A stretch of 38,830 nt of DNA from an uncultured Methylophilaceae bacterium (GCA_964484985.1 CAZAHP010000001.1:1-38830); one strand, 5' to 3'. Positions 14,568 through 30,694 are shown, counted from the stretch's first letter. Program-made: numbers and translations. Notes: generated by a model from the letters alone, not told the origin.

Positions 14568-14589
14568 AACATTACAATTTTGTAATGTT
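14568..14589. promoter_or_regulatory. CusR/CopR-type copper box in the divergent promoter region
   Basis: Perfect palindrome AACATTACAA-TT-TTGTAATGTT. It resembles the E. coli CusR box AAAATGACAANNTTGTCATTTT and lies between divergent cusRS and the cus efflux operon. Confidence 0.7.
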
Positions 14590-14650
14590 GGGTAATTGGC
14601 CTGCTTACGTGCAACAATTTGCATGTTGATAAATGTCTGAAGAGAAAAAG

Positions 14651-15328
14651 ATGAAAATCTTAATAGTCGAAGATGAACAGAAAACTGGCGATTACCTGAA
14701 ACAAGGCTTATCCGAAGCTGGCTTTGTAGTAGATTTAGTGCGTGACGGCCTCGATGGCGTACATCAAGCATTAACTGATGACTACGATCTTGTAGTCCTT
14801 GATGTCATGCTACCTAAACTCGATGGCTGGCAGGTACTTCAGCAAATCAGGCAAGGAGGTAAGCATATGCCCGTGCTATTCCTTACTGCCCGCGACCAGA
14901 TTGAGGACAGGGTAAAAGGACTGGAGCTTGGTGCCGACGACTACCTTGTCAAACCGTTTGCATTTTCGGAGTTACTTGCACGAGTGCGTACATTGTTGCG
15001 CCGAGGCAAAGCCAAGGAACCTGAGCTTCTGCAAGTCGCCAACTTAGAATTGGATATTCTGCGACGTAAAGTAACGCGAGCAGGAAGACGTATTGACCTT
15101 AGCGCCAAGGAATTCTCTCTGCTTGAATTACTGTTGCGACGCCAAGGGGAGGTGCTGCCCCGTTCTCTGATTGCATCACAGGTATGGGATATGAACTTCG
15201 ACAGTGACACCAATGTGATTGAAGTTGCGATGCGTCGTTTACGCGCAAAAATAGATGACGATTTCGAGCCTAAGCTCATCCAGACCATCAGGGGCATGGG
15301 ATACGTACTGGAAATCCTAGAATCATGA
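14651..15328 (+). CDS. cusR: OmpR-family copper/silver response regulator
   Basis: MKILIVEDE receiver domain, [12 protein letters not shown], winged helix ...IRGMGYVL. Start moved to ATG 14651. Confidence 0.95.
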
Positions 15329-16860: not shown

Positions 16861-17559
16861 TTACTCATTAGTGGCAAGATAGTGTGTTCGCATTTTTCGC
16901 GCCTTTCTCTGGTTAGCTTTTGCTTCGTTCATTCTATTAAGTAACACCTTTATTTTTGACTGTAAATCCTCCATTTCAGTTAACAAGTCATCCTCATAAT
17001 TGGCTTTTTTCAGCGATATTATTTCGGCTTCTAAATCTCTAATTTTTGTAGTCGCCTTCTGATGCTCCAACAAATAACACCTATTCGCGTTTTGCACTTC
17101 ACGTATCATCGTTAAATCATTTGGCTCAAAGGTCAAGTCACCTCGGTGAGGGCACGTCAGTCTGCCGTTTGTTCCAATAAACCATCCTGCCCAGTCCTTA
17201 TTTGAAAGTCTAAAATGTACGCTCTCTTCGACTAGTCTTAGTAGTTCGAATGCCATAAATGGTACTGGTCTCTTGTCTAACTCCCATAGTTTAATTTCAC
17301 GTTCAGTTACACGTAGATATGCAGCACACTGCTTAACAGACATATCTAACATAAACTGTCTCATGTAAGTGAATTGCTTTGCGCCTGGTGTAATTTTTTG
17401 TGATTGTTGCACCCATAAAGGGTGATATTCTGGCCACGCTTCGTTGATTTTGCTACTTGTAGGCTCTATTGCTTGCATGTAATAGGCCCAGCGAGTCATT
17501 TCGTTTGGGTAAGGTTTGGGTTTTGATTTTATAGTAGTATTTTTTCTTATTATTGCCAT
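16861..17559 (-). CDS. putative HTH regulator (DUF3653-like phage/ICE regulatory protein) with C-terminal coiled coil
   Basis: MSVKQCAAYLRVTEREIKLWE...PVPFMAFELLRL...WAGWFI..GRL.CP pattern recalled from DUF3653-type proteins. Not searched. Confidence 0.55.
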   Translation of the reverse strand: MAIIRKNTTIKSKPKPYPNEMTRWAYYMQAIEPTSSKINEAWPEYHPLWVQQSQKITPGAKQFTYMRQFMLDMSVKQCAAYLRVTEREIKLWELDKRPVPFMAFELLRLVEESVHFRLSNKDWAGWFIGTNGRLTCPHRGDLTFEPNDLTMIREVQNANRCYLLEHQKATTKIRDLEAEIISLKKANYEDDLLTEMEDLQSKIKVLLNRMNEAKANQRKARKMRTHYLATNE

Positions 17560-17653
17560 GTTACAGTCTCGTCGTTTTTAGTTTTAGTTACCCACTAACC
17601 GCGTGGAAACAAAATTTTAGAGTTTGACTCAACCCTAATTTGTTAACAAAGGT

Positions 17654-17680
17654 AAAAAACCGCCACGAGGGCGGTTTTTT
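17654..17680 (-). terminator. rho-independent (bidirectional-looking) terminator after the helicase gene
   Basis: aaaaaa-CCGCC-acgag-GGCGG-tttttt, immediately 3' of stop 17682. Confidence 0.8.
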
Positions 17681-17681
17681 A

Positions 17682-20033
17682 TTAATGCAACAACTGTTTT
17701 GCTAATGCTACTTCTATACTATCACCTGACTGATTTAAGACATCTAAACCAGAATCAGGCATATCACCAGATGTTGATTGTGATACTGCTATTTTCTTTG
17801 CCATAAGTTCTAAACACTGCATCTGTGCGCTGTCCTCATAACCTAAGTACCACACTTCTACATCTTCTTCTTGACCGATCCGCCAACTTCTACGTGCAGC
17901 TTGCTGTACGGTGTAAACGTTATAGCCACTTTGCATAAAGACGATAGTAGGAAACTCCAACATATCAAGACCCGTTTTAACAAGCTCTTGGTTCGTGATA
18001 ATAATATCCACTCCCCTATCCACCTGGTCAAACAGCCAATCTTCACGCTTAACAGCATCAACGCTAGATCTTAATACAGCTACTTTAAAGCCTTCTTTTT
18101 CAAGAAAACCTTTAAGTCTTGCAGCTGTATCACGCTTACCCGTGTAAGTCGTATAGACTAAAACACGGCGGCCACGTAACTTATTAGATCTACAGATTTC
18201 CAATAATTCTTGCTCTTTTGGAGTAAGCGTATTGTCATCAAATATTTCCACCAAGTAAGCAATTTGCTCTTTGGTTCTAGGATGTCTGACAAGCTCATCC
18301 CTGAAACAAGTATCTGGCCATGCAAGCAATACATTTAAAACCACACCTAGTAAGCTGGTATCACCTTTACGAAGCGCCTCTCTCAGCTCTCCAGTTAAGG
18401 TTGCACTGAGTGAGTGATACATTGCACGCATCTCACTCGTCATCAGCACTTCTTTAAAGTACTCTTGATATGGCGGTAAAATATCGCCACCAATATCTTT
18501 GAGCTTTAAAAATACTGTGATTGGTAAAATATAACGCATGATCCCCATCGGACTAAAGCCTGGTCCTTTGGATGTTCTATGAGCTACAGTATTACCACGC
18601 GCAGTACGATGTGAACCACCTTCCGTTTCCTTATAAATATCTTTAAGAATACCGTGCTCACGCATGAAGCCCATTGATGCTGTACCAAGTGTGTTTCGTT
18701 CGTTATAGTCAAATCCATCTTCGATCATCATTGACGGATTCAAACGGTGCAACAAATAGAACAAATCATCAGCATAACCACCCATTAGCGTACCAGTTAG
18801 CAACAGGATCTTTTGACACTTCGCTGCTAATACACCCATGGCTTGGCCTTGAGCCGAACTTTCATTCTTGTACTCATGCCCTTCATCAACGATTAACAAG
18901 CCAAAATAGCCTTGTGGTAAGTATCGTTTGATAAATTCAGTAGGTTGGTAACCGCCCTGGCCAAACGAAAATTCTATGTTTGCCATTGCTCGCTCCATTC
19001 TACGTGCTTGCCTGTCATTGAAATACAGCTCACCATCTTCATCCATTAAGTTGATGAACTCATAAACGTTGTCGTTAAGCATTCCAGATAACATGTCAGC
19101 ACCGAACTTATCTAATAAGTTAGCAGCCGTTTTATCGCCTATGGTTGGAATTTGGCATAGGCTTTTGGCCACCAATTCTTTAGTGTTCATAGGTTGGCCA
19201 TTTTTACTGACCAATGTCCATAAACGCTCTCCACAGTCACGTTCTGCCACACGTGAAACACCATCCTCACTTGCAACTTTACGAAACACTTTATGCTGAC
19301 AAGAGGCGCGTTTCTCATTGAGAATTGCTCCAGCCATCAATGCTGAGACTGGGTTCCCATCATCATCGAGTAATAAACCGCCACAACTAGGGCAAGCGGC
19401 ATACCGAACTCGTTGCTTATGTTCACCTTCACCTACTAGCATTTTTCTAATAGAAAATGCAGGTTTCCAATTGAAACCCATACGCATGCGTACACGCCCC
19501 ATGATAAAAAACTCAGGCACTTGTGGCTTGCATTGCATAGCACGCAACTCTAAAAGCTTGCGTAAGGTATCAGGTCCGTTCAGTATCCAAACACGCGCAT
19601 TATGTACGGTAGCTTTGATTTCTCTACGCCACTTATAGACTAAATGCGGTGGTGAAATAACAAGTGACCTTGTGTAACCCTCTTCGTGTAATACCGCTGC
19701 AGCCGCGATAGCCATCATCGTTTTACCTGTGCCCATTTCGGCATTGATAATCGCTGCAGGTTGCTTATGATCTATCAACAACTTTGAGACAGCCTGGACA
19801 ACTTCTTGCTGTGGCTCAAATGGTTTTCTAAGCAATCCCTCCATCAATTCTTTACGAACTAAATCAGGGTTTCCATCATAAATTGATGGATTTTGCTTTT
19901 GAACCGCTTCTAATAAACCATGCCCAAACTCGGCAATAAACTGGCTCAGTGGTATTACTTCTTCAGCTGCACCTTCTCCATCTAAACGTTCTGCTAAAGC
20001 AGTGTCGTCATCTTCAAAATATTGCGTTGCCAT
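17682..20033 (-). CDS. SNF2/DEAD-like superfamily-2 helicase with a Zn-ribbon-containing insertion
   Basis: Walker A AEMGTGKT, DEGH box (LLIVDEGHEYKN), motif VI QQAARRSWRIGQ. About 280 aa lie between motifs I and II, including CPSCGG...C. Confidence 0.9.
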   Translation of the reverse strand: MATQYFEDDDTALAERLDGEGAAEEVIPLSQFIAEFGHGLLEAVQKQNPSIYDGNPDLVRKELMEGLLRKPFEPQQEVVQAVSKLLIDHKQPAAIINAEMGTGKTMMAIAAAAVLHEEGYTRSLVISPPHLVYKWRREIKATVHNARVWILNGPDTLRKLLELRAMQCKPQVPEFFIMGRVRMRMGFNWKPAFSIRKMLVGEGEHKQRVRYAACPSCGGLLLDDDGNPVSALMAGAILNEKRASCQHKVFRKVASEDGVSRVAERDCGERLWTLVSKNGQPMNTKELVAKSLCQIPTIGDKTAANLLDKFGADMLSGMLNDNVYEFINLMDEDGELYFNDRQARRMERAMANIEFSFGQGGYQPTEFIKRYLPQGYFGLLIVDEGHEYKNESSAQGQAMGVLAAKCQKILLLTGTLMGGYADDLFYLLHRLNPSMMIEDGFDYNERNTLGTASMGFMREHGILKDIYKETEGGSHRTARGNTVAHRTSKGPGFSPMGIMRYILPITVFLKLKDIGGDILPPYQEYFKEVLMTSEMRAMYHSLSATLTGELREALRKGDTSLLGVVLNVLLAWPDTCFRDELVRHPRTKEQIAYLVEIFDDNTLTPKEQELLEICRSNKLRGRRVLVYTTYTGKRDTAARLKGFLEKEGFKVAVLRSSVDAVKREDWLFDQVDRGVDIIITNQELVKTGLDMLEFPTIVFMQSGYNVYTVQQAARRSWRIGQEEDVEVWYLGYEDSAQMQCLELMAKKIAVSQSTSGDMPDSGLDVLNQSGDSIEVALAKQLLH

Positions 20034-20038
20034 CGTGC

Positions 20039-20100
20039 TCTCCTAAAATAAAAAAAGGGAGCACGACCCCGAATGGGCAGTAACTCCCCATCGGGTTAAA
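20039..20100 (-). promoter_or_regulatory. short leader module A (UAACCC box, terminator-like hairpin, U7, SD)
   Basis: Minus strand: UUUAACCCGAUGGGGAGUUACUGCCCAUUCGGGGUCGUGCUCCCUUUUUUUAUUUUAGGAGAGCACGAUG. Confidence 0.8.
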
Positions 20101-20113
20101 ACAAATTTAAATA

Positions 20114-20659
20114 CTAAATCTTAATTAAAAGATTGGTCTCAATATACTCATACAACTGAAAATCAGGCATGCTCTGCTTTGCATTTTCGTACTCAACAAC
20201 TAATGCATTCAACAGTTGGCCAACTTTAGTTATATTCAGTGATATTTCTTTATGGTTTAGGGTATCGCTACCATCCCCAGTTGAGAAATAATCAGCTTCA
20301 TTTGAACAATGCTCGATAACGTTATTGAATGCCTGGAGCAATGGATCTGAGCTTTCAGGTACGTCATCATCTTCAATGTTGTATTGCAAACCTTCCTCAG
20401 CAGGTATCTCAGTGACAAAATACCCTAGACGATTTACATAATGCCAGCCATTAACAATTAACCATGAACTTTCCTCACTATCAATAAGCGTCCAAATAGT
20501 GAGTGGATTGATTTTATTTTGCTCTAGGATGAATTCATATTCTTGACCATAAGTCTCAAACATGTGGCCATCATAAGAAGCATTATTATCAAGGTGGTTC
20601 TTGACTGGTTTAAATTGTTCCCAGAACTGATCATCTGTTAACTTAACTAATTGATTCAT
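20114..20659 (-). CDS. acidic hypothetical protein
   Basis: 181 aa, own SD behind module B, D/E-rich; no family recognised. Confidence 0.7.
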   Translation of the reverse strand: MNQLVKLTDDQFWEQFKPVKNHLDNNASYDGHMFETYGQEYEFILEQNKINPLTIWTLIDSEESSWLIVNGWHYVNRLGYFVTEIPAEEGLQYNIEDDDVPESSDPLLQAFNNVIEHCSNEADYFSTGDGSDTLNHKEISLNITKVGQLLNALVVEYENAKQSMPDFQLYEYIETNLLIKI

Positions 20660-20665
20660 GGTGTA

Positions 20666-20720
20666 CTCCTAATAAAATAGGGTGCACCATGCCCAAAGGG
20701 TGGTTACACCCTTGGGTTAG
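20666..20720 (-). promoter_or_regulatory. short leader module B
   Basis: CUAACCCAAGGGUGUAACCACCCUUUGGGCAUGGUGCACCCUAUUUUAUUAGGAGUACACCAUG. Confidence 0.75.
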
Positions 20721-20734
20721 TATTAAATTTATAT

Positions 20735-21325
20735 TTAGCTAATTAAACGTGCTGTGCCTTCGTTGATTGATCCAATTAAATAGCCGCGCTGAAACACATA
20801 ATTGTCATTGAATATGATCCGCTTACCTTCTTTTCTGGATACTCTAAATTGATTGCTTGAGTATCCATTTTTGAAAGTGACTGGTTGCTCAAATTCAATA
20901 AGACTGCCAACGGTTAACGAGGCTATGAATTTGCTAGCGTTCTTTTTACTTTGGAGCCTTTGATGACAACGTTCGCGCCACTCATTGGCATACTCATGAA
21001 CAGTAGGCGTTAGCTTATTTAAAATGCGTAGTGGGCAATTGTAAGCACATGGACCACAACTTTCATCCATATCCTTATAGCAAATGTTGTTGCGGCTATC
21101 TTTGTGTAAAGTCACCAAAGTAATTGACGCAAATACCCTACGCTCACCCGTTTGTTTGTTGATGCATTCAACAGCTGCATAGAATTCACTGAAATTAACG
21201 AAAGCACTATCTAATACTTTATACGTATTAGGACTTTCATCACTCCAAGTAAATACGCCGCTACTTAAAAGAAAATCCGACACCGATTGTTCTTTCTGCT
21301 TATAGGTACAAGTCCATCCCATCAT
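20735..21325 (-). CDS. hypothetical Cys-containing protein
   Basis: True start MMGWTCTYKQ at 21325 behind AAGGAG. The 36 N-terminal residues in the ORF track are read-through of repeat C. Confidence 0.7.
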   Translation of the reverse strand: MMGWTCTYKQKEQSVSDFLLSSGVFTWSDESPNTYKVLDSAFVNFSEFYAAVECINKQTGERRVFASITLVTLHKDSRNNICYKDMDESCGPCAYNCPLRILNKLTPTVHEYANEWRERCHQRLQSKKNASKFIASLTVGSLIEFEQPVTFKNGYSSNQFRVSRKEGKRIIFNDNYVFQRGYLIGSINEGTARLIS

Positions 21326-21328
21326 GCT

Positions 21329-21567
21329 CTCCTTAAAATGAAAAAAGGGAGCACGACCCCGAATGGGCAGTGAACTCCCCATTGGGTTAAAACAAACTTC
21401 ATGTAATCCTGGTCTTGCGACCGTTGTTTTCAAGGACTGAACAACTTTAAAAGCAACACTTACGGTGTTAATCGAGCTTTAACTGAAAGCTAACAGTGAG
21501 ACACTCATAAGTACCAGGTACTTTTCTCAAATACACGCTTGGCCATGTGTTTGAGAAAAGCCCCTGA
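21329..21567 (-). ncRNA. long structured leader element C (short module plus hairpins P4-P1 plus overlapping hairpins T3/T2/T1)
   Basis: 21320-21505 is identical over 186 bp to 24961-25146. Hairpins GGUC-GCAA-GACC, GUUGUU/AACAAC, AACAC/GUGUU, AGCUUU/AAAGCU. Confidence 0.75.
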
Positions 21568-21586
21568 AGGCTTTTCTTATTCTACA

Positions 21587-22243
21587 TCAACTACATTTTG
21601 TTACCACTACATCTTGAATACTACCGATTTCGTCATCCAACTTCCAACTGGATGCAATAAAATCATCTGACTTAACCATTAGCAAAGCATGCTCTCGTGC
21701 GCTTTCTTCACTGCCTGCTTTAATAAGCAGCTCACATGACTCTGAAGCTAAGCGCATTACCAGCACTTTGTAGTTGCCTACGTCATTTGGTATTGCAAAG
21801 CCATTATTTCCATAAGTAGCTTTTGTTGGCCACTCATAGACTAACTCGTAATTAAGTATGACAAAATCATCTGCATTAGCAGGTAACGTTAATGCCTGCA
21901 GCTCACCTTCGCCTGCACTTGCATAATAATAAATGCTGTCATCATTAACGCCATAACCATCATGTTGATTGTGTTCGGTAAACGTTCCAAATGAAATGTA
22001 CACATCACTTACAGTGCCCTCATCCAACAATTGAATCCGACACTCTGCACCTATAGGTTCTTGGCTTTGTGTATAGAGTGTATCTTTACCCACAAAATCA
22101 TCCATCTCCCATTTTCCTTGAAATAGTGGGTCATCAAAGACTTCTCGTGCTAACTTTAAGGACTCTTCCATATTAATAGCATCTATGCTGATAGTGCATG
22201 ACTCAGTTAAAGCATGTGTAGCTGTTACTAAAAACTTACTCAT
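21587..22243 (-). CDS. acidic hypothetical protein with N- and C-terminal copies of an ESC..I.A...EES...A motif region
   Basis: 218 aa. Compare LTESCTISIDAINMEESLKLAREVFDDPLFQGKWEMDDFVG with ASESCELLIKAGSEESAREHALLMVKSDDFIASSWKLDDEIG. Confidence 0.7.
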   Translation of the reverse strand: MSKFLVTATHALTESCTISIDAINMEESLKLAREVFDDPLFQGKWEMDDFVGKDTLYTQSQEPIGAECRIQLLDEGTVSDVYISFGTFTEHNQHDGYGVNDDSIYYYASAGEGELQALTLPANADDFVILNYELVYEWPTKATYGNNGFAIPNDVGNYKVLVMRLASESCELLIKAGSEESAREHALLMVKSDDFIASSWKLDDEIGSIQDVVVTKCS

Positions 22244-22249
22244 TTTATT

Positions 22250-22307
22250 CTCCTGAAAATATCAAGAGAAACCCCGCCTCGCGGTGGGGTTCCGCTTGAC
22301 GGGTTAA
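22250..22307 (-). promoter_or_regulatory. short leader module D (variant with GCGA-tetraloop hairpin)
   Basis: UUUUAACCCGUCAAGCGGAACCCCACCGCGAGGCGGGGUUUCUCUUGAUAUUUUCAGGAGAAUAAAAUG. Confidence 0.7.
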
Positions 22308-22320
22308 AATATATATACGT

Positions 22321-23418
22321 CTATCGAATACTTACAATCTGGCCGTAACCTTCGCCTGGCGTGAAATCTATTCCAGTAATGGCTGGTATAAATTTGTCAG
22401 TAAAAGTTCTGGTTTCTGAAACTACTCCATTGTCACTTGTTTCGTGTGTCACAACCAGATCACGTTGCTTAAAGGTATCCCCTTTAATTAACAGCCTTCT
22501 ACCTGATTCAGACTCTACTACACCTGAGATCTGGCCAGCTGCAAGCGCTAAGGCTAAATGCCAGTTGGACAAAGCACGTAATGGTTGCCTAGGCTTGTCT
22601 TCAGCTACCGTAAACATCGTGTTAAATTGTGACCAAAGCGTATTTTTGCTTAACCTATTCAGTTCAGACTCTAATTGTCGGCCATCAATACGAATGGCTG
22701 TGAATTTAAGGTCTGCCTCCCGTATTTCTGGGACTAAATAGGGTTCTGCTTGCCAAAATTCTGGCAACACTGGGGCTTCACCAGTACCGCATAGCTCAAG
22801 AAGTTTTTGTGTTTCCACATCAACCATTTCAGCACGACGCTTCACACCAAAGATCACACACTGCTTAAATTGCTTTTCAGGTGACATAAACACTTTCACT
22901 TGCGAAAAATTGCGAGCGATCATGCTGGAATACTCTTTATCCAGTACATAGTACGGAACAATGAGCACCATCACGCCACCAAACTGCAACCAAGGCATTG
23001 TCTTACGGTAAAACTGCTTTTCAAGTCGATCACCCACTGTTTTACTGCCACAAGTGGCAGCTTTGTCAGAAACAACATCGCCGTATGGTGGGTTTAGGAA
23101 CAATAAACTTTGGCTACGCGCAGTAATAAAAACATCGTTAATATCACAGTGTGCAACCTTATCAAGCAGTGTCTTGGAATGCCAGGCACGCTCTTCATCG
23201 TACTCAACTCCCAATGCACTTACAGTAGATCCGCATTCAGTAAGATGATGCTTTATCTCAGCCAAAGCGGTTCCCTCTCCACAACAAGGATCCAGTATGC
23301 TTAGATTTGAACCACTAATATCCAAAGCATTGATTATTCTGGCCAACGTCATTTCATCCGTTGGGTAATACCCGTTTTTCAAAAAATTATGCGCTAAGCG
23401 CGAAAACATTAAAGCCAT
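22321..23418 (-). CDS. orphan N6-adenine DNA methyltransferase (motif I then NPPY; possibly DUF6094-type)
   Basis: ILDPCCGEGTAL (SAM motif I) and FLNPPYG (motif IV). No adjacent endonuclease-like ORF. Confidence 0.85.
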   Translation of the reverse strand: MALMFSRLAHNFLKNGYYPTDEMTLARIINALDISGSNLSILDPCCGEGTALAEIKHHLTECGSTVSALGVEYDEERAWHSKTLLDKVAHCDINDVFITARSQSLLFLNPPYGDVVSDKAATCGSKTVGDRLEKQFYRKTMPWLQFGGVMVLIVPYYVLDKEYSSMIARNFSQVKVFMSPEKQFKQCVIFGVKRRAEMVDVETQKLLELCGTGEAPVLPEFWQAEPYLVPEIREADLKFTAIRIDGRQLESELNRLSKNTLWSQFNTMFTVAEDKPRQPLRALSNWHLALALAAGQISGVVESESGRRLLIKGDTFKQRDLVVTHETSDNGVVSETRTFTDKFIPAITGIDFTPGEGYGQIVSIR

Positions 23419-23424
23419 GATGTA

Positions 23425-23480
23425 CTCCTAAAAAATAGAGACACCATGCCCTTGTGGGGATGATGTCCCCACAGGGTTAA
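23425..23480 (-). promoter_or_regulatory. short leader module E
   Basis: UUAACCCUGUGGGGACAUCAUCCCCACAAGGGCAUGGUGUCUCUAUUUUUUAGGAGUACAUCAUG. The stem needs two G-U pairs on the minus strand. Confidence 0.75.
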
Positions 23481-23482
23481 AA

Positions 23483-23719
23483 TTAATACTGACCTAAATT
23501 ACATATCACGCCTTTAGAATAAGAATATGGTCCTATGCTGAGAGGCTGTATATGATGGCCACTACCTTTGAGTGATACACACAGCCGTCTAAATTGCTCG
23601 ACAGTGCATGGCTCAATCACAAATGCGGTTTTATCAAAATCTGTTTGCTCGACTGTTACATCAGAGCCACAAACTTTAACGGCCGCATGATTGACTTTCA
23701 TTAGATCTAGGTTAGTCAT
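23483..23719 (-). CDS. small hypothetical protein
   Basis: 78 aa; 8-nt overlap with the upstream gene (translational coupling). Confidence 0.6.
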   Translation of the reverse strand: MTNLDLMKVNHAAVKVCGSDVTVEQTDFDKTAFVIEPCTVEQFRRLCVSLKGSGHHIQPLSIGPYSYSKGVICNLGQY

Positions 23720-24194
23720 GTGTTACCTGGTGATGAGGATGATTTATAAGTTTCAACTGCTCAAATTCATCAAACTGCATGAACCAACTATCCAAACTAC
23801 AACCTGAGTACACATCTTGAGCTGCAATCGATAAACCGTCTGGAAAGATCCGTAGGTGTATTTCATTCACTCTGACTATCGGCATATCTGCTAAAAGCGT
23901 TTGACTGCGATTTTCGCCTATGCAATTTTGAGCAAACATCAGCTCTATATCACTTGGTATCTCATTGAAGTAATGGCAGTCTATTTGCTTACCATGGTGA
24001 CGAAGTGAGTTAACACCTGCCAAAATGGATATATCAAACAAACCGAGCTTGTCATGCAGCGCACTTGCTTCTTTTACAAATGGTAATAGATCCTGCAAAT
24101 CGAAGCTCAACACTAAATAGCGTGGAAGCGCGTCATTATTGGTGACTTTTGCATCGTAAAAAGTCTTGGTGACGATTTTGTAAATGCTAGTCAT
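23712..24194 (-). CDS. hypothetical protein
   Basis: 160 aa; 8-nt overlap with the upstream gene. Confidence 0.65.
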   Translation of the reverse strand: MTSIYKIVTKTFYDAKVTNNDALPRYLVLSFDLQDLLPFVKEASALHDKLGLFDISILAGVNSLRHHGKQIDCHYFNEIPSDIELMFAQNCIGENRSQTLLADMPIVRVNEIHLRIFPDGLSIAAQDVYSGCSLDSWFMQFDEFEQLKLINHPHHQVTHD

Positions 24195-24966
24195 GATTGA
24201 CCACCAACTTCAATAGTGTGGTGTTAGTTTCAACCTCACTATCATTAGCTGCTACGGGGTAATCATCTTCGTAGAAATCATCATTACTATGACCAAACTC
24301 ATCAATGCAAATTTGACGAAAATCACCGTCTTCATCATCAACCATGCCACCATTATTACAGTATGCCACGCCTGCAAAACCACCGCCTTCATCTGCATAA
24401 GCCATCCTGAAGCTTAATTCAGGAAACGCTGCGCTCATTGCTTCAAGTACTGGATAGGCTGGCGACCAGGCTGTTTCATAGTAACAACGGAAAACGGTGT
24501 CGGAACTATCATCAGCTAATGCGTGGTTGTATGCATCCCACTTAGTCCCCCAGTTCACTATGCTCCATTCATACCAAGTTTCGTACCCATATTTTGCAAT
24601 ATTGGTAACCACTTTATGACCTAACTCAACTGCTTCAGGTTTATGTTTTGCGAACCAAGCCAAAAACTTCGGCCGAGAATGATGTAGGGCATTGATATTA
24701 GTCTGTGAAAGCTGCTCTTCTTGCATCAGCTTAATAACCCAAGGGTAATTCAGCACCGTTTTAAAATCACCTGCGACCACTTCTTTACCTAAGCTTGATT
24801 CTGATCCGCATGTAATTTGGAGTTCTTCAGGCATTGGAATGACACGGTTAAATACTAAACAATGTTCTACTTCACCAATTTTTTCACAAAACTTGGCTTT
24901 GAACGCTGCAATGTCGGCTGCATTACCGTTTACTTCTAAATTAGTCCAAACGTGGTTAGGCATCAT
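24187..24966 (-). CDS. DUF1281-like (Api92-like ferredoxin-fold) protein with acidic C-terminus
   Basis: MMPNHVWTNLEV..., WYEWSIVNWGTKWDAYN, ETAWSPAYPV. True start at 24966; the ORF-track N-terminus is repeat read-through. Confidence 0.7.
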   Translation of the reverse strand: MMPNHVWTNLEVNGNAADIAAFKAKFCEKIGEVEHCLVFNRVIPMPEELQITCGSESSLGKEVVAGDFKTVLNYPWVIKLMQEEQLSQTNINALHHSRPKFLAWFAKHKPEAVELGHKVVTNIAKYGYETWYEWSIVNWGTKWDAYNHALADDSSDTVFRCYYETAWSPAYPVLEAMSAAFPELSFRMAYADEGGGFAGVAYCNNGGMVDDEDGDFRQICIDEFGHSNDDFYEDDYPVAANDSEVETNTTLLKLVVNHD

Positions 24967-24969
24967 GCT

Positions 24970-25218
24970 CTCCTTAAAATGAAAAAAGGGAGCACGACCC
25001 CGAATGGGCAGTGAACTCCCCATTGGGTTAAAACAAACTTCATGTAATCCTGGTCTTGCGACCGTTGTTTTCAAGGACTGAACAACTTTAAAAGCAACAC
25101 TTACGGTGTTAATCGAGCTTTAACTGAAAGCTAACAGTGAGACACTACTAAGTACCAGGTACTTTTCTTAAACACACGCATGACCATGTGCTTGAGAAAA
25201 GCCCCTGAAGGCTCTTCT
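24970..25218 (-). ncRNA. long structured leader element F
   Basis: 186-bp identity with element C, then diverged T3/T2/T1 hairpins with a G-U compensated T1. Confidence 0.75.
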
Positions 25219-25225
25219 TACTACT

Positions 25226-25543
25226 TTACTTGGTTAATGATAATGCCATTAAATATTTATGGCATTCCTGGCATCCACAAGGCTTAACATAGCCTGACTT
25301 AAATATTTCTAAGCATTGGCTTATATTGTCCTCATGAATACTGTGTGTTTCTGACTGCGTATTGATATATCCATATTTCAAATGCACCCAGTAACCATCA
25401 CCATCCTTACCTTGACTACGATAATCTTCAATTTCATTGATGTACATTGCATAGGGTTTTAGGCTTGTTGGTATTGTTACGTTCTTAGTCACTTTCAGCT
25501 CAACACGTAAGTTATAAGCTAGCATATCTACCGAATCACTCAT
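25226..25543 (-). CDS. small hypothetical protein
   Basis: 105 aa, ATGA overlap with the upstream gene, CGCQEC near the C-terminus. Confidence 0.6.
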   Translation of the reverse strand: MSDSVDMLAYNLRVELKVTKNVTIPTSLKPYAMYINEIEDYRSQGKDGDGYWVHLKYGYINTQSETHSIHEDNISQCLEIFKSGYVKPCGCQECHKYLMALSLTK

Positions 25544-26718
25544 GCTGCAGCCCTTCCGTATCTTTGCTCAATAAGTTGCTTAATTTCGCTCAGTGGTTTT
25601 GGCTCAAAATACAGATCCAATTCAACATGTAATGGCACTTGTACGGCGGTCTTACTGCTACCCTCATATAAATCACCTTTGACATGAATCTGTGTACCCA
25701 CTAACTCACTAATTGAAATATAGCCCAGCTCAGCACACATTAAATCGCCATTGAGTATTGCGTAGCCAAATGCTTGCGACACGCCATCCTCAATATCTTT
25801 TTCAATAATGTACCAATCTGAATCACCTAAAAAGTAATGCAAACTCACCACTGGATCGTTTTCATCTTCACAGTCGTAAGTTTTAGGCATGCTGCCAATT
25901 CTATAAGCCATTTCTTTGAATTTTTCCTCAAAGAAACTACCCTCTTCACCTTTGCAACATTCCAGCATCGATAAATACTGTTGAGTAGATAAATAAGGCC
26001 TTAACGTAGCTTTTGCCTGCTTGCTGATGTACTGTGAATCTGATGTTGGTTGTTTACTCACGATACTATTGTGATTAACCAGACTTGCATCAAACTGTTG
26101 GCCATCAATACCGATCAATCCTGACTTCACCATGCTAGATATGATCTGGGTAAACTCTGCATCGATCACCAACTTGGCCGCGCTAATTTTACCTATTGGT
26201 GGGTAGTTGATCGTGTTCATCCAAGTGACGCAAATTTCATTATTGGAATGCATGATTGCAGACTGCCAATCATCCAACAATGGAACTGGGGAAAGATTCT
26301 TGTAAAGCCCCCATACGCCTCTTAAAAGCTGTTCACGTACACCTACATCACCCCAAGGTTGATTAAGCACCACCCAGCCTGCTTTTGTGGCTTTGCTAGG
26401 ACTAATCAGTACAGGATCGTAAATCCAAAGATGCGTTAGATTGCCAAATAGATTATCTTTAGGAAACCGACCACTATAGACCTCAAAACGATCTGGATTA
26501 CCAACTTGTACACTATGCGGCGTTTCTTTTTTATCGTTACAATTGCGTAATGAAAAATTAGAAATGCCGCCACTATTGGGTTTTAATTGCATGGAAGCTT
26601 TGAACTGCTGAATTGCAGTATCTCGGCCATAAACGGATAGAAACATTAACTCACCTGATTCATTCCGCAGACAAGCATCCACAAATAAATCAGCCAATTC
26701 AACGACTTTATAAAGCAT
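25540..26718 (-). CDS. protein with C-terminal DUF2958-like domain and unknown N-terminal 250 aa
   Basis: LHYFLGDSDWYIIEKD...AFGYAILNGDLMCAELGYISISEL matches the remembered DUF2958 pattern. Start at ATG 26718. Confidence 0.75.
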   Translation of the reverse strand: MLYKVVELADLFVDACLRNESGELMFLSVYGRDTAIQQFKASMQLKPNSGGISNFSLRNCNDKKETPHSVQVGNPDRFEVYSGRFPKDNLFGNLTHLWIYDPVLISPSKATKAGWVVLNQPWGDVGVREQLLRGVWGLYKNLSPVPLLDDWQSAIMHSNNEICVTWMNTINYPPIGKISAAKLVIDAEFTQIISSMVKSGLIGIDGQQFDASLVNHNSIVSKQPTSDSQYISKQAKATLRPYLSTQQYLSMLECCKGEEGSFFEEKFKEMAYRIGSMPKTYDCEDENDPVVSLHYFLGDSDWYIIEKDIEDGVSQAFGYAILNGDLMCAELGYISISELVGTQIHVKGDLYEGSSKTAVQVPLHVELDLYFEPKPLSEIKQLIEQRYGRAAA

Positions 26719-26725
26719 GGTATCG

Positions 26726-26780
26726 CTCCTAATAAAAAGGGATACCTGCCCTGATGGGGATGGTATCCCCAATGGGTTAA
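26726..26780 (-). promoter_or_regulatory. short leader module G
   Basis: UUAACCCAUUGGGGAUACCAUCCCCAUCAGGGCAGGUAUCCCUUUUUAUUAGGAGCGAUACCAUG. Confidence 0.75.
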
Positions 26781-26793
26781 AGTAATCTATTGA

Positions 26794-27204
26794 TTAACTA
26801 CGAAGCTTTTCAGCAATTTCAACTGCCACACCCCGCCAACCTTCTGGTGAGATGAGTCCATTTCGCATTGATTCCAATTCTTCAATTGGAGTATTGGCAA
26901 CCAAGTTTGCAAATTTGCTTACTGCATCCATAACGAACATTTGAGCCAATGCACCAAATTTGGAATACTCCATAATTCCTGTGATTTTCTCAATGTTTGT
27001 TGGGTTATTAGACGATGAGTAGCTGCTATGGCTACTTTCATTCATCAAAGCTTCGGTTAAACTACCATTTTCCGATTCGGCATCAGTTGCTGCCTGCGCA
27101 TCACTTGTTGTACAGCCAAAACTTTCTAATTGCTGTACGCGAAGTTGATATAGCTGCTGTTCATCCAACGCACCCAGTTTGATTTTAATTGATGTAATTC
27201 TCAT
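26794..27204 (-). CDS. acidic helical hypothetical protein
   Basis: 136 aa, SD GGAGAGC behind element H. Confidence 0.65.
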   Translation of the reverse strand: MRITSIKIKLGALDEQQLYQLRVQQLESFGCTTSDAQAATDAESENGSLTEALMNESSHSSYSSSNNPTNIEKITGIMEYSKFGALAQMFVMDAVSKFANLVANTPIEELESMRNGLISPEGWRGVAVEIAEKLRS

Positions 27205-27210
27205 AGCGCT

Positions 27211-27447
27211 CTCCTAAATATAAAAAGGGAGCACGACCCCGAATGGGCAGTGAACTCCCCATTGGGTTAATACAAACTTCATGTAATCCTGGTCTTGCGA
27301 CCGTTGTTTTCAAGGACTGAACAACTTTAAAAGCAACACTTACGGTGTTAATCGAGCTGTAACTGACAGCTAACAGTGAAACTGATTTTCTAAAAAATGC
27401 GTTGGCCACACTTTTTAGAAAACCCACTCATAGAGTGAGAGTTTTCT
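27211..27447 (-). ncRNA. long structured leader element H
   Basis: Same as C except for a compensatory P1 change (AGCUGU/ACAGCU) and different T2/T1 hairpins of the same layout. Confidence 0.75.
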
Positions 27448-27452
27448 TGATT

Positions 27453-27743
27453 CTATTTCAACATACCACTGCCATGACAAGCATCACATACTTCATCATC
27501 AGGCATCACTTCATCTGGGTAATAGTGGCCAGGAACATAAACGTTCATAAATCCACAACCTGAGCATTTATTACACACTGATTGATGACTGTACAACTCA
27601 ACACTGATGGTTCTATTGGGATGTTCGGTTTTTTTACTTTTTTGCGTCATACACTTTGCATGTGATTGCGGTGTAGCTGTTAAATAGGATTTAATACCTG
27701 ACTTAACGTTAACCGCAACTAGGTGATAGAGAGATTCAATCAT
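27453..27743 (-). CDS. small protein with DnaJ-type CxxCxGxG zinc-finger motifs
   Basis: CNKCSGCGF and CDACHGSG; 8-nt overlap with the upstream gene. Confidence 0.65.
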   Translation of the reverse strand: MIESLYHLVAVNVKSGIKSYLTATPQSHAKCMTQKSKKTEHPNRTISVELYSHQSVCNKCSGCGFMNVYVPGHYYPDEVMPDDEVCDACHGSGMLK

Positions 27744-28341
27744 GATTCACAGCCTTTCTAGCCCAAGACTGTGTAATTGCATCAAACAGATAACCATGCT
27801 CTTTTAATACATCACGCTGCTGACGGAATAAAGCCCTATCTACCGTTGGATCAAGTTTTACTGGTATGTGATTAGCTATTTGATAAATTAACTCAACACC
27901 AACAATAGGCACTAAGTTTTCATAATCTTTAACAGCGTCATTAGTCAGTTTGTATGAATCTGCGACTACCGTTTTAGACTCTGTAGTATTTTCAGACTCT
28001 ACGTTAGTGCTAGGCTGGACTGTAGATTGTGCAGCTGCAGCTTCGTTAACTGGATCAGGTTCAGGTACCGTAATATCTACTTCACCTTCGTCTGCAGTAT
28101 CAAGCCTAATGTCTGTCACTTTAGCTCTAATATCAGTCGTTGATTTTCCACGCCAAACATAAGAGCTTAAATAGAAGCTTTCTATAACAAACTCACCTTC
28201 ATAGCGCCCCTCCTCGAATTGATCAAGAATGGATTCTTTGACTTTGAATTCACCTATTGAAGTGCTTAAATCTCCAGTACAAAACTTGCCATTTGCCCCA
28301 GAAATTTGTTTTACTGTTAATACTCCGTTAATTGTAATCAT
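27736..28341 (-). CDS. DUF3275-like ICE protein
   Basis: MITINGVLTVKQISGANGKFCTGDLSTSIGEFKVKE...EGRYEGEFVI resembles remembered DUF3275 N-termini. Start at ATG 28341. Confidence 0.7.
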   Translation of the reverse strand: MITINGVLTVKQISGANGKFCTGDLSTSIGEFKVKESILDQFEEGRYEGEFVIESFYLSSYVWRGKSTTDIRAKVTDIRLDTADEGEVDITVPEPDPVNEAAAAQSTVQPSTNVESENTTESKTVVADSYKLTNDAVKDYENLVPIVGVELIYQIANHIPVKLDPTVDRALFRQQRDVLKEHGYLFDAITQSWARKAVNHD

Positions 28342-28347
28342 ATTGCT

Positions 28348-28404
28348 CTCCATAAAATAAAAAAGGGAGCAATCCCATAAGGGCTTGGCTTCCCCTTTGG
28401 GTTA
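28348..28404 (-). promoter_or_regulatory. short leader module I
   Basis: AUAACCCAAAGGGGAAGCCAAGCCCUUAUGGGAUUGCUCCCUUUUUUAUUUUAUGGAGAGCAAUAUG. Confidence 0.75.
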
Positions 28405-28440
28405 TGTAAAAATGTAAACTTCAAACAAAGGATAAGTCCC

Positions 28441-28644
28441 ATGTTGAAGTCAGGAAATACCATCAGATTAAACAATGCAGATATTGATAGAATTGCAGGA
28501 CTTGCTGGTGCCAGTCCTCAAGGCATAAATACCGCACAAGGTTTAAATAATTTTATAAGTTTTCACTTAACTCAGTATTCTAATAAAACGCCAGAAGAAA
28601 AACTTCTAGCGTTATTATTAGAATCTGAAAAAGTAGCTATCTAA
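28441..28644 (+). CDS. possible small plus-strand ORF (only plus-strand candidate in the island)
   Basis: 67 aa, AAGGA 8 nt upstream, converges on and overlaps 28637..28834 by 8 nt. Could equally be non-coding. Confidence 0.3.
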   Translation: MLKSGNTIRLNNADIDRIAGLAGASPQGINTAQGLNNFISFHLTQYSNKTPEEKLLALLLESEKVAI

Positions 28645-28834
28645 TTACGTCAGTGCCTAATGTTGTCATCGCCTGACAATAAACATCCCAAAGCCCTTGC
28701 CTAAGTTCTGGGTCTGCATTTAACTTATCTACTAATCGTTTTGCACCCTCTTTAGTAGATGCCAAATCTAGCAAATATGAATGTTGTTTTTTCTGCCATT
28801 GCACATCAGAAATAAAAGTTTTTGGTGTAACCAT
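28637..28834 (-). CDS. small hypothetical protein
   Basis: 65 aa, canonical GGAGAGCAUCAUG start context behind element J. Confidence 0.55.
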   Translation of the reverse strand: MVTPKTFISDVQWQKKQHSYLLDLASTKEGAKRLVDKLNADPELRQGLWDVYCQAMTTLGTDVIR

Positions 28835-28840
28835 GATGCT

Positions 28841-29065
28841 CTCCTAAATATATAAAAAGGGAGCACCACCCCGAATGGGCAGTGAACTCCCCATTGGGTT
28901 AATACAAACTTCATGTAATCCTAGGTATTGCTACCCGTTGTTTTCAAGGACTGAACAACTTTAAAGCAACACTTACGGTGTTAATCGAGCTGTAACTGAC
29001 AGCTAACAGTGAAAACGTTTAATGGCTTTCTAAAAAACACATCTATTTGTGTACTTTAGAAAGCC
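28841..29065 (-). ncRNA. long structured leader element J
   Basis: P4 is GGUA-GCAA-UACC (compensatory relative to C/F/H). T2 is GGCUUUCUAAA/UUUAGAAAGCC. Confidence 0.75.
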
Positions 29066-29397
29066 CCCAGGGCAACCCTAGAGACTGAAAGCCTGCACCA
29101 TCCAATCGTATTAGATCGTGACGCGTAATAGGCAACAAACGCGGATTTAGCGGCATGGCCGCAAACGGCGTGGAAGTCTAGGTCTCCACAACCCATAGAT
29201 TCAACTTAAGCATAACAGGAGTTGAAACCAGTGATATTGATCCGTGTGATCACAGAAAAATATCACTGGTTTCCGAATAGGGAAGACAAACTTTCGGTCT
29301 GTCTCGGGATTGAGTACAAGGTTCACGAGGCCCGTACAATTGCACCATTGAATAACGAGACGAAATTCATTCCAGTATGAATGGCAGAACTGGACAT
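29066..29397 (-). other. orphan GC-richer structured non-coding segment
   Basis: No credible ORF. 14-bp perfect stem 29224-29237/29260-29273. GUACGGG/CCUUGUAC helix (29314-29337) with G-U pairs only on the minus strand. Confidence 0.4.
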
Positions 29398-29535
29398 AAA
29401 GCAACACTTACGGTGTCAAACGCGCTAACTTAGCGAACGAGAAAATTATTCGGTGAATTTTGTTAGTTTGGGAACTTCACTTATGAGTTATCCCATAAGT
29501 GAAATCCCCAAGGGAGATTTCAAAAACCAGCTTTG
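29398..29535 (-). repeat. partial (distal-half) copy of the long element plus terminator-like hairpins after the DUF3577-like gene
   Basis: aaagcaacacttacggtgt (29398-29416) is identical to the P2 region of C/F/H/J. Followed by hairpins ttcacttat/ataagtgaa and atcccc/gggagat. Confidence 0.55.
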
Positions 29536-29537
29536 GC

Positions 29538-30407
29538 TTATTCAGCTTGGGCTAATTGAGTTTCATTTTCTTCAACTTGATTCGTGTTTTGCTCATTATC
29601 ATCGGCTTCAGAAGAAGCTAATGTTTCAGTAAGCAATGGGGTACGAACGCCATCTAAGAAAACTGCACTTATTGCGGTAAGAGCACCAATAAACTTAGCA
29701 CCTTTATCGCCAGCTTTATTAACACCAACATCTTTGGTATAAGTAAAATCAAATTTTTTGAGATTACTTACTTCAAAACGGGCAATAACTGCTGTTTCTT
29801 TACTGCTGATTTTTTGCAAGTGTTGCATGTTGCTAACTAAAGTTGTATCAATATCGCAGCTAATACGAGTGGTCTCAGCTTTAATACCTAAGTCTTTGTT
29901 ATATTCACCATGTAGCGCAGCTATAGAACAAGACATTGCGTTGGTTCTGAATGATCTAATATCATTAATATAACCAAAACCGAAAGTACCAAGTTTACGA
30001 GTATCATTAACAGGTAACTCTTCAAACGCACTGCCATTTACTGAGACATTAACTAAGTCCAATAAACGACCTTTAGCCATAAAACCTTTATCACCTTTTT
30101 GATGTTCACCAACGTCTTTATCATAAGTGAAATCGCTAATAGATAAATCACTTGCAATCCATTTAGCTTTAATTACAGCATTTTTATCAAAATGTGGCTT
30201 GATAAGCTCCAAAGCTTTAACAGCTTTAGTACTTACAGCAATCACATCAACTGATAAATCGCCAGAACGTAAAGTACAAGCATAAAAAGGTTTCCCTTTT
30301 GCTGGCTTAACCAAACGGATACGGTTAACGTAACCTTCGCTAATGTTTGTTAAATCAAAAAAGCGAGATTCGTTAGTTGTGTTAGTTGAAGTTGTAGTGT
30401 TAGTCAT
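29538..30407 (-). CDS. tandem-duplicated DUF3577-like protein (possible ssDNA-binding-type fold)
   Basis: FFDLTNISEGYVNRIRLVKPAKGKPFYAC resembles remembered DUF3577 N-termini. The internal repeat is marked by DFTYDKDVGEHQKGDKG and DFTYTKDVGVNKAGDKG. Acidic tail. Confidence 0.75.
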   Translation of the reverse strand: MTNTTTSTNTTNESRFFDLTNISEGYVNRIRLVKPAKGKPFYACTLRSGDLSVDVIAVSTKAVKALELIKPHFDKNAVIKAKWIASDLSISDFTYDKDVGEHQKGDKGFMAKGRLLDLVNVSVNGSAFEELPVNDTRKLGTFGFGYINDIRSFRTNAMSCSIAALHGEYNKDLGIKAETTRISCDIDTTLVSNMQHLQKISSKETAVIARFEVSNLKKFDFTYTKDVGVNKAGDKGAKFIGALTAISAVFLDGVRTPLLTETLASSEADDNEQNTNQVEENETQLAQAE

Positions 30408-30413
30408 GATGCT

Positions 30414-30596
30414 CTCCTAAATATAAAAAAAGGGGAGCATTACCCGATTGGGAAATGAACTCCCCAATGGGTTAAAACTAAACATAAAATGAAATCCTAG
30501 AGTTTGCACTCCGTCGTTTACAAGGACTGAACGACATTAAGGCGGTCATTTGCGTTAACCAAACGAACTGAAACTGACAGTCAACAGTGAAACTAA
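30414..30596 (-). ncRNA. long structured leader element K (most diverged copy)
   Basis: P4 GAGU-GCAA-ACUC, P3 GUCGUU/AACGAC, inner stem CAUU/AAUG; all compensatory relative to C. Confidence 0.7.
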
Positions 30597-30602
30597 GGCA
30601 GC

Positions 30603-30629
30603 TTAATAACGAAAAGCCAAACGAGTCAA
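30603..30629 (-). promoter_or_regulatory. weak sigma70-like promoter candidate upstream of element K
   Basis: Minus strand TTGACT-N15-TATTAA (spacer short, or TTTGAC-N16). Confidence 0.25.
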
Positions 30630-30694
30630 AGACTAATTAATGCAATACGCATTTTCCGCAAATAATTTTAGTTGTCAATAGTTAAACATTGTTT

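Follow-up and report, generated by a model that had tools for sequence, protein, structure and literature searches.

A leader-tagged gene array downstream of topB

We describe here an array of genes in which one structured leader sequence recurs before start codon after start codon, found in a stretch of 38,830 nucleotides (nt) from an uncultured Methylophilaceae bacterium (GCA_964484985.1 CAZAHP010000001.1:1-38830), which as a whole we call the window and which appears to belong to an integrative conjugative element (ICE). From 38.7 kilobases (kb) down to 17.7 kb all genes of the window lie on the minus strand, and along the direction of transcription they follow the order PFL_4669/AcaB-like gene, helix-turn-helix gene, ssb, HU gene, topB, three small open reading frames (ORFs; 31763-30695), and then the array, which runs from 30407 down to 17682 and is followed on its 3′ side by an intrinsic terminator (17653-17681, minus strand; a 12-pair stem with 5 G-C pairs, then a T run), a 232-amino-acid (aa) ORF, and copper/silver cargo. 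The array holds, in about 12.7 kb, 15 co-directional genes in 11 leader-tagged cassettes, and its chief interest is the shared leader itself, a widespread covarying six-helix element, absent from Rfam, that places 11 ribosome-binding sites under one structural regime.

The short form of this leader, of about 68 nt, reads (U)UUAACCC, hairpin P1, GGG, and hairpin P2, where P1 is a G/C-clamped hairpin (CCC...GGG), and where P2, with a U-rich loop, is formed by an anti-Shine-Dalgarno (anti-SD) segment (e.g. GUGCUCCCUU) that pairs with the Shine-Dalgarno (SD) sequence and spacer (AAGGAGAGCAC), reaching the AUG. This P1 plus P2 module precedes all 11 independently started genes, and a short-leader covariance model (R1) built from the window copies recovers exactly 11 copies (E 2e-8 to 6e-21), every one on the minus strand and ending at an ATG, with only two other matches across the 38.8 kb, both weak (E 0.28 and 0.54) and on the plus strand. 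In five copies, before the ATGs at 30407, 28834, 27204, 24963, and 21322, the leader takes a long form that adds hairpins H1-H4 upstream, and further upstream, beyond H1, a terminator-like hairpin and a palindrome. The remaining 4 of the 15 genes, namely the coupled ORFs starting at 25543, 24194, 23719, and 27743, have no leader copy, and given that their starts overlap the stop codon of the preceding gene, they are translationally coupled; the 15 genes thus amount to 11 initiation units, arranged in five blocks.

All cassettes are on the minus strand, and the first in the direction of transcription has the most divergent long leader (30405-30694, from the leader alignment), with a sigma-70-like promoter match upstream (30678-30651; TTGACA, 16 nt, GAAAAT; 10 of 12 positions), and encodes a tandem DUF3577 protein (29538-30407; two DUF3577 stretches, Pfam 2.7e-25) that scores 79.8 bits, under the cut-off of 160, against the NCBIfam STY4534 “ICE replication protein” model and ends in an acidic tail (net -9 in 30 aa). 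Cassette 2 consists of a long leader recognised in the leader alignments (28832-29110) and a 65-aa orphan ORF with no family match (28637-28834), and cassette 3 (27453-28341) has a short leader (28339-28405; R1 63.7 bits) before a DUF3275 protein (27736-28341; Pfam 2e-38), to which a 96-aa mini-protein (27453-27743) with no Pfam match is coupled. The long leader of cassette 4 (27202-27459) belongs to a repeat family (D1), at 73% identity, and precedes a 136-aa protein (26794-27204) that is mildly acidic (isoelectric point, pI, 4.68; net charge -7) and matches phrog_7895, of unknown function. In cassette 5 (25226-26718), a short leader (26716-26780; R1 55.1 bits), in which the SD-mimic, the anti-SD, and the SD are mutually compatible by eye and in the fold, stands before a DUF2958 protein (25540-26718) and a coupled 105-aa ORF. 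Next, a long leader (24961-25220; fold z = -4.0), 97% identical to the copy at 21320-21579, precedes the DUF1281_C protein of cassette 6 (24187-24963; Pfam 1.7e-11; net charge -23, with a tail of net -11 in 30 aa), behind which lie two leaderless coupled ORFs of 78 and 160 aa (23483-24194) whose starts overlap the upstream stops and which match no family.

The second half of the array begins with cassette 7, in which a short leader (23416-23480; R1 63.5 bits) precedes an N6-adenine methyltransferase of the DUF6094 family (22321-23418; Pfam 1.3e-27) with the motif LNPPYG in its translation, and continues with an acidic orphan of 218 aa in cassette 8 (21587-22243; pI 4.21, net -24), placed behind the most divergent of the short copies (22241-22307; R1 40.5 bits, E = 2e-8). 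The long leader of cassette 9 (21320-21579), a 260-nt member of repeat family D1 composed of the terminator-like hairpin, the palindrome, H1-H4, and P1-P2, precedes a DUF6927 protein (20735-21322; Pfam E = 4e-16) that was missing from the gene list of a preliminary description of this DNA. Finally, a short leader with compensatory changes in both stems relative to other copies (20657-20720; R1 56.7 bits) precedes the acidic 181-aa orphan of cassette 10 (20114-20659; pI 4.18, net charge -23; no family match), and the best-scoring short copy given here (20031-20099; R1 78.8 bits, E = 4e-18), in which the SD is sequestered in the fold, precedes the 783-aa SNF2-family helicase of cassette 11 (17682-20033; Pfam SNF2-rel_dom, ResIII, and Helicase_C).

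Most of what the preliminary description had listed stands: its count of 11 cassettes is exact by the covariance model; Pfam confirms SNF2, the NPPY methyltransferase, DUF1281_C, DUF3275, DUF3577, and, weakly (E 1.3e-4; 22.7 bits against a cut-off of 21), DUF2958; two CxxCxGxG motifs of the DnaJ zinc-finger type (CNKCSGCG and CDACHGSG) can be read in the translated mini-protein; the methyltransferase is an orphan in that none of the window ORFs scanned showed a nuclease domain; and a strong terminator does close the array. Its claim of at least five strongly acidic proteins holds for the two orphans with pI 4.18 and 4.21 and for the two acidic tails, but not for the only moderately acidic protein at 26794-27204, and the array is directly downstream of topB/ssb/HU only in the sense that this cluster precedes it, with the three small ORFs in between. 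Several starts had to be moved: that of the DUF2958 gene is ATG 26718, not TTG 26772; that of the DUF3275 gene is 28341, since the closest database protein has 201 aa; and the DUF1281 and DUF6927 genes start at their second ATG (24963 and 21322), given that the ORFs extended to a TTG, annotated at 21433 for DUF6927, would merely translate the leader.

Two further assignments were tried and rejected. DUF3577 does not behave as an SSB-like oligonucleotide-binding fold (hhalign probability against the window SSB of 0.2%, and nothing meaningful for the profile against the PDB), and the CxxCxGxG mini-protein, which has a PHROG match at E = 0.009, is not a conserved Q-like partner of DUF3275, because the next gene in relatives, where found, is dissimilar and has no CxxC. 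Sequence searches of the PDB with DUF1281, DUF3577, DUF2958, and DUF3275 gave no matches, and no near-identical DNA was found among PLSDB plasmids or complete E. coli genomes. Two intervals of the array are less regular. In the 283-nt gap before DUF3275 there is a 67-aa ORF on the plus strand (28441-28644; no Pfam match), the only sizeable opposite-strand ORF of the array that is gene-called too, on metagenome contigs, and it could be a small divergent regulator or spurious. The 703-nt non-coding gap at 28835-29537, behind the DUF3577 gene, contains a hairpin that follows directly on the stop codon (29468-29511), an H2 hairpin like that of the leader but standing alone (29397-29426), and a 23-nt inverted repeat (29224-29273). 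Among the fetched loci, the arms of this repeat recur as an exact pattern only in L081 and L082, the two that represent this very element and cover the region. As the gap adjoins the gene resembling the “ICE replication protein”, it may hold an origin or some regulatory site.

Conservation of the leader and of the element that carries it

The leader was followed through 80 loci anchored on DUF3275 and taken from species-representative genomes of 33-68% G+C (Thiobacillus, Methylophilaceae, Comamonadaceae, Methylomonas, Pseudomonas, one Francisella metagenome-assembled genome, and others). The short-form model has 328 matches at E <= 0.1, spread over 72 of the 80 loci; the 300 matches listed are without exception on the gene strand, and a start codon is the end point of 293 of the 299 that were parsed, with a following ORF of median 154 aa. 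Covariation of P1/P2 over 112 distinct matches is 0.366, against at most 0.063 with slid partners and a mean of 0.143 in shuffles, in an alignment (A5) that was fitted to the model and so favours the modelled pairs. In the case of H1-H4, a plain MAFFT alignment of 24 long leaders has 97.7% of cells paired and changes on both sides in 17 of the 20 pairs, and the covariation of 0.611 (at most 0.157 with slid partners) was reached in 0 of 500 shuffles. The loops are conserved as well, that of H2 being usually CGUAA, that of H3 usually UCAGUCCUUGAAA, and that of H4 often a GNRA tetraloop (GCAA or GUAA), with a linker close to GGAUUnCAU; three conserved GGA motifs were also seen by eye in the leader.

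No Rfam 15 family matches at gathering thresholds, and none of relevance appeared at E <= 5 for the array or at E <= 1 for five related loci. On the same contig, the motif is absent from the traI-to-topB part and starts only at DUF3577, and as a negative control it had no match in 252 kb of unrelated viral contigs, where 26 single pattern matches were dismissed as chance because none of them carries the leader motif. A pattern scan of metagenomes gave about 20 further loci with the motif, those with multiple copies having up to 10-11, on a single strand per locus, and in the P. aeruginosa plasmid pY89 the motif occurs only within the block from STY4534 (DUF3577) to the helicase, nearly always at annotated starts of coding sequences.

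When the related loci are counted in which a given family follows a short-leader match, DUF3577 is tagged in 34, the SNF2 helicase in 21, RadC in 19, DUF2958 and DUF3275 in 18 each, and the DUF6094 methyltransferase in 17; DUF6573, LPD29, PAPS reductase, SSB, and C5 methyltransferase genes are occasionally tagged, N6 methyltransferases also, together with many small unknown proteins. The core order in most relatives examined is DUF3577, DUF3275, DUF2958, methyltransferase, and helicase, with variable genes in between. The array is most likely the conserved DUF3577-to-SNF2 module of a MOBH/MPF_G ICE in the lineage of ICEclc, PAPI-1, pKLC102, and the gonococcal island, made up of backbone genes (DUF3577/STY4534-like, DUF3275, DUF2958, DUF6094 methyltransferase, and SNF2 helicase) and variable small genes, several of them acidic, and about half or more of its tagged genes are conserved backbone and not cargo.

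The surroundings agree with this assignment. The PFL_4669 protein scores 136.5 bits against TIGR03761 (cut-off 110.7), and SSB, HU, and topoisomerase III are recognised by Pfam. The window sequence is contained in a 107-kb metagenome contig (L081) that carries, upstream of the window and co-directional with the array, genes for a TraI_2 (MOBH) relaxase, traD (TraG-D_C), a DtrJ-like protein, relB, parA, parB, and DUF2857, the relaxase gene being about 20 kb upstream of the array. The gonococcal genetic island is colinear, with traI, traD, parA, parB, yfeB, yfb, ssbB, topB, and yef, the last encoding DUF3577 (PMC3334931), and pY89, which is pKLC102-like and typed as MOBH and MPF_G by PLSDB, has the same block order with a pilus operon inserted.

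Some further features of the element were seen in passing. The 232-aa ORF behind the terminator (16861-17559, minus strand) resembles the VC1465/XafT Xer recombination activation factors (NCBIfam 50.3 bits, cut-off 70), and homologues occupy the equivalent site after the helicase in two related loci (L001 and L002); no integrase adjoins the relaxase on the contig, and together these observations suggest that the element may integrate via XerCD/dif, like the gonococcal island. The window, too, has no integrase. Upstream of the PFL_4669/AcaB-like gene there are perfect 31-nt direct repeats (38764-38794 and 38800-38830, 36 nt apart) that could be iteron-like or operator-like. At 1-16734, the copper/silver cargo comprises cusRS, cusCFBA, a P-type ATPase, and genes for YHS-domain proteins; its G+C is 47-55%, compared with about 40% in the array, and its copper-ATPase half recurs beside an insertion sequence (rve) transposase in an unrelated context (L112), which fits a separate acquisition.

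Shine-Dalgarno occlusion and the proposed translational switch

The ribosome-binding sites behind the leader are unusually closed. Opening the interval from -16 to +3 is computed to cost a median of 11.4 kcal/mol at the 11 tagged starts versus 5.8 kcal/mol at the 31 other starts of the window (Mann-Whitney p = 3e-5). There is also an alternative pairing, since the anti-SD is complementary not only to the SD region (AGGAGAGCAC) but also to the 5′ arm of P1 (GGGGAGUUCAC), which resembles that region. This helix between mimic and anti-SD was picked independently by RNAalifold on a MAFFT alignment; over the 112 matches it has 78.5% of cells paired and a covariation of 0.278 (at most 0.105 with slid partners), and when the SD and the AUG are forced open, it is the best fold in all 11 copies, at 4-15 kcal/mol above the closed state.

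Our reading of these facts, to which we give a probability of about 0.55, is that the stretch is a conserved topB-downstream MOBH/MPF_G ICE module under one default-off translational leader switch. The element would act as the 5′ leader of an mRNA, in which the pairing of anti-SD and SD in P2 would keep the ribosome-binding sites shut by default, whereas capture of the anti-SD by the 5′ arm of P1 would free the SD, thus making a two-state translational switch. The position of the long copies right after terminator-like hairpins may mark the starts of five transcription units, and a hypothetical common factor or condition would flip the 11 switches together, their opening leading to a coordinated burst of entry and establishment functions, that is, methylation of DNA, its processing or replication, and probably some cargo directed against defences. 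The opener might be a host factor, CsrA for instance in view of the three GGA motifs, or else a protein or RNA that recognises the CCC/GGG clamp together with the invariant loops. The preliminary description had expected one common control from the shared leader; the leader is real and could impose such control. Gene content, synteny, the conservation and covariation of the element, SD occlusion, and the presence of the alternative pairing are demonstrated by the analysis, whereas action as RNA, switching, the trigger, and an establishment or anti-defence role are inferred. A more ambitious version is that the leader represents a widespread and apparently undescribed class of structured cis-regulatory RNA specific to MOBH/MPF_G islands, a modular translational switch, repeated before each independently translated gene of the establishment module, in which H1-H4 would be the sensor or platform and P1/P2 would form a three-segment SD gate; an ICE or host factor would flip all its copies at transfer (“zygotic” control, exerted on translation and not on promoters). 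This we put forward tentatively, as a possibility that stands short of even odds.

Two elements near the long leaders deserve mention. A promoter proposed within the leader itself (TTAACA, 16 nt, TAAAGT) was rejected, since its -35 box forms one side of the covarying H2 stem and varies freely in relatives. The palindrome CTTTTCTnAA...TTnAGAAAAG, for which the chance expectation is none, lies just 5′ of H1 (21521-21560 and 25162-25201, with variants at about 27395-27435 and 29024-29065). It extends into the terminator-like hairpin, whose 3′ arm and U-tract it overlaps, and its outer arms are kept in L001, L002, and L027; a dimeric regulator might use it as operator, or it might be one more RNA hairpin.

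Could the leader instead be passive, a portable module for translation initiation and insulation, or for mRNA processing or stabilisation, that gives equal and modest expression to swappable cassettes by means of an SD/anti-SD hairpin with a U-rich standby loop? The attachment of the leader to unrelated genes, core and variable alike, the near-identical 260-nt copies flanking unrelated cassettes, the U-rich loop of P2, and a closed state 4-15 kcal/mol stabler than the open one would all suit such a module; however, a passive hairpin needs neither the conserved SD-mimic in P1 nor the covariation of the alternative helix, and the invariant loops of H1-H4 suggest recognition by something, so that we regard this explanation as somewhat doubtful, if still deserving of serious attention.

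Less probable in our view is that the element, and especially H1-H4, works as single-stranded DNA on the strand that is transferred or displaced by rolling-circle replication, in the form of repeated single-strand origins or priming sites. It is true that the strand specificity is strict, that an architecture of several hairpins over about 180 nt with conserved loops would suit this role, that the excised ICEclc replicates from its origin of transfer (oriT) by means of its relaxase (PMC6561031), that a gene resembling the “ICE replication protein” heads the array, and that, with the genes co-directional, the displaced strand could be the sense strand. But in 293 of 299 matches P1/P2 keeps an exact, single-nucleotide register with the SD and the start codon, G-U pairs are frequent in the helices, the loop of H4 is often GNRA, and the relation between anti-SD, SD, and mimic makes sense only for an mRNA; we therefore consider a single-stranded DNA role quite unlikely.

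Several points weigh against the translational switch and are best taken together. Its support is computational, including the P1/P2 alignment already said to lean toward the modelled pairs; the trans-acting factor that would flip the switch is hypothetical; and the closed state is far stabler than the open state, so that the element might be a constitutive damping or insulating structure. Being on the sense strand, the structure could equally form in transferred single-stranded DNA. The window has no known anti-defence protein to accompany the proposed establishment burst, and as our literature search was limited, the leader may have been described in print before.

Possible counter-defence functions and comparison with known systems

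The preliminary description had interpreted the array as an ICE establishment and anti-defence island. That it belongs to an ICE, that it is a conserved module, and that the corresponding hotspot of relatives is rich in anti-CRISPR genes all speak for it, whereas no cassette was found to match a known anti-defence family or fold. The profile searches that had been suggested for genes that counter restriction, CRISPR, or the SOS response found no such family (Pfam, NCBIfam, and PHROGs), in line with the caution of the preliminary description that no specific anti-defence function could be assigned, and PADLOC, which models defence systems, returned for the array only generic SNF2 and methyltransferase matches. 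In the suggested fold comparison, the AlphaFold2 model of the 181-aa acidic protein (predicted local distance difference test, pLDDT, 84) has no ArdA-, Ocr-, or KlcA-like match and a best PDB hit of E = 0.3; uncultured tailed phages encode uncharacterised proteins that share a domain with the first ~100 residues of this protein (Foldseek E = 7e-13, 47% identity). The model of the 218-aa acidic protein is poor (pLDDT 62); this family is rare (8 homologues among 5.8 billion clusters), and its N- and C-terminal parts look internally duplicated by eye, the low-confidence model repeating a strand-strand-helix unit. Among the representatives of tagged-gene clusters that were scanned in relatives, which leave most clusters unscanned, none matched ArdA, KlcA, or PsiB.

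Nevertheless, an anti-defence role of the array is plausible but unproven. In Pseudomonas, a PAPI-1 hotspot with DUF3275 and DUF2859 as its borders is reported to contain genes for defence or anti-defence in about one third of cases, and anti-CRISPR genes are notably abundant there (PMC12629846), so it is reasonable that some of the variable cassettes counter defences. Orphan methyltransferases and SSBs are the usual companions in plasmid anti-defence regions, and a protective role would suit the orphan N6-adenine methyltransferase (PMC11541004). For the backbone genes, the STY4534-like head gene points rather to housekeeping or establishment functions. The annotation of pY89 (L114) places a “Lar family restriction alleviation protein”, as well as a DNA adenine methylase, between parA and parB (14522-15193 and 20828-21718), upstream of ssb-topB and outside the tagged block, and thus the recognisable anti-restriction genes of this lineage are not confined to the array.

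A stronger form of the anti-defence reading would make the array a classical leading-region island, which would be the first part to arrive in the recipient, where the incoming single strand would serve as template for its transcription, with the acidic proteins as DNA mimics and the leader as a signal for early expression. The closeness to ssb, the orphan methyltransferase, the co-orientation of the genes, the strongly acidic orphans, the enrichment of plasmid leading regions in such classes (PMC11541004), and the clustering of anti-CRISPR genes beside DUF3275 in PAPI-1 are all in its favour. Nonetheless, we judge it unlikely. No ArdA, KlcA, PsiB, or Acr family is matched, no DNA-mimic fold matches the 181-aa protein, whose model is confident, and the ribosome-binding sites, being unusually closed, are not tuned for immediate expression. 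The repeat, moreover, is made of six short helices, and its apparent -35 box (TTAACA) lies unconserved in the covarying H2 stem, so it is not like the single-strand promoter Frpo. Geometry also matters. Strand polarity leads us to expect that plasmid leading-region genes point toward oriT when the transferred strand is their template; the gonococcal island has its oriT upstream of the yaf-traI operon (PMC6736028), and if oriT lies upstream of traI here too, the array would be tens of kb from it and pointing away, with the relaxase gene about 20 kb upstream and co-directional, an orientation wrong for transcription of the transferred strand. For neither ICEclc nor the gonococcal island did we find a published statement of the side of oriT that leads in transfer.

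That the SNF2 helicase and the methyltransferase would instead form a host-protective cargo defence system of the DISARM, BREX, MADS, or Zorya type seems to us highly improbable. Partial PADLOC/NCBIfam matches to ZorD, DrmD, BrxH, DpdE, and mad2 do exist, but at only 14-57 bits, against NCBIfam cut-offs of 500-1500, and they cover only generic helicase and methyltransferase cores; no partner components of DISARM, BREX, MADS, Zorya, or Dpd are present; and the helicase-methyltransferase pair is conserved backbone of the lineage, including pKLC102-type plasmids.

The question is of practical weight because genes for resistance, virulence, and catabolism are spread by this ICE lineage among Beta- and Gammaproteobacteria, Pseudomonas aeruginosa with PAPI-1 and pKLC102 being one example. 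Taken alone, the anti-defence island would be one more member of a published pattern, while a leader that shuts every ribosome-binding site of the module would give a handle on the control of entry and establishment genes, would serve as a sequence tag for new establishment and anti-defence genes in metagenomes, and would contrast with the promoter-based and single-stranded-DNA-promoter schemes of plasmids. If the switch class is real, any tagged gene, across thousands of islands, becomes a candidate establishment or counter-defence gene.

Among known systems, the closest is the backbone of PAPI-1, pKLC102, ICEclc, and the gonococcal island, which shares the order relaxase, parA, parB, DUF2857, PFL_4669, ssb, topB, DUF3577, DUF3275, DUF6094 methyltransferase, and helicase (PMC12629846; PMC3334931), as well as genes on one strand, variable small genes between the core ones, and, in pY89, the leader motif. 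The element described here differs in its 40% GC and uncultured host, in having no type IVb pilus operon inserted, no relaxase-adjacent integrase, and no recognised anti-CRISPR, and in its XafT-like gene after the helicase; the published work on GI-Hotspot 1 (PMC12629846) does not mention a shared leader. As in integron attC arrays, the cassettes are separated by imperfect hairpin-forming repeats on one strand; an integron cassette array was nevertheless rejected, since here the repeat lies upstream of genes and includes SD and ATG, there is no R′/R″ core-site pair and no intI, and many of the “cassettes” are backbone genes conserved in fixed order.

With the leading-region islands of the Frpo type (PMC11541004), the array shares the vicinity of ssb, the orphan methyltransferase, the many small co-oriented unknown genes, and a repeated intergenic element, whereas its oriT is probably distant, with the genes likely oriented away from it, known anti-defence genes are lacking, and, in place of a long promoter-forming hairpin with -35 and -10 boxes, it has a multi-hairpin leader fused to the ribosome-binding site. 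In SD-sequestering riboswitches and three-segment platforms, an anti-SD likewise pairs either with the SD or with an SD-like segment farther upstream, each pairing excluding the other, and H1-H4 could be the sensor here; translational riboswitches differ in that the leader has no Rfam match, occurs in 11 copies within 13 kb before unrelated genes, follows no evident ligand or metabolic logic, and in its short form has no domain of aptamer size. Finally, the establishment genes of the p576/pLS20 family (PMC6294495) are likewise headed by one conserved upstream signature, probably for transient common control after transfer. There, in Gram-positive plasmids, that signature (the Reg576 operators) is a DNA operator for a ribbon-helix-helix repressor, whereas here it is a set of covarying SD-occluding hairpins, and for this reason the control of the present array is probably exerted at the level of translation.

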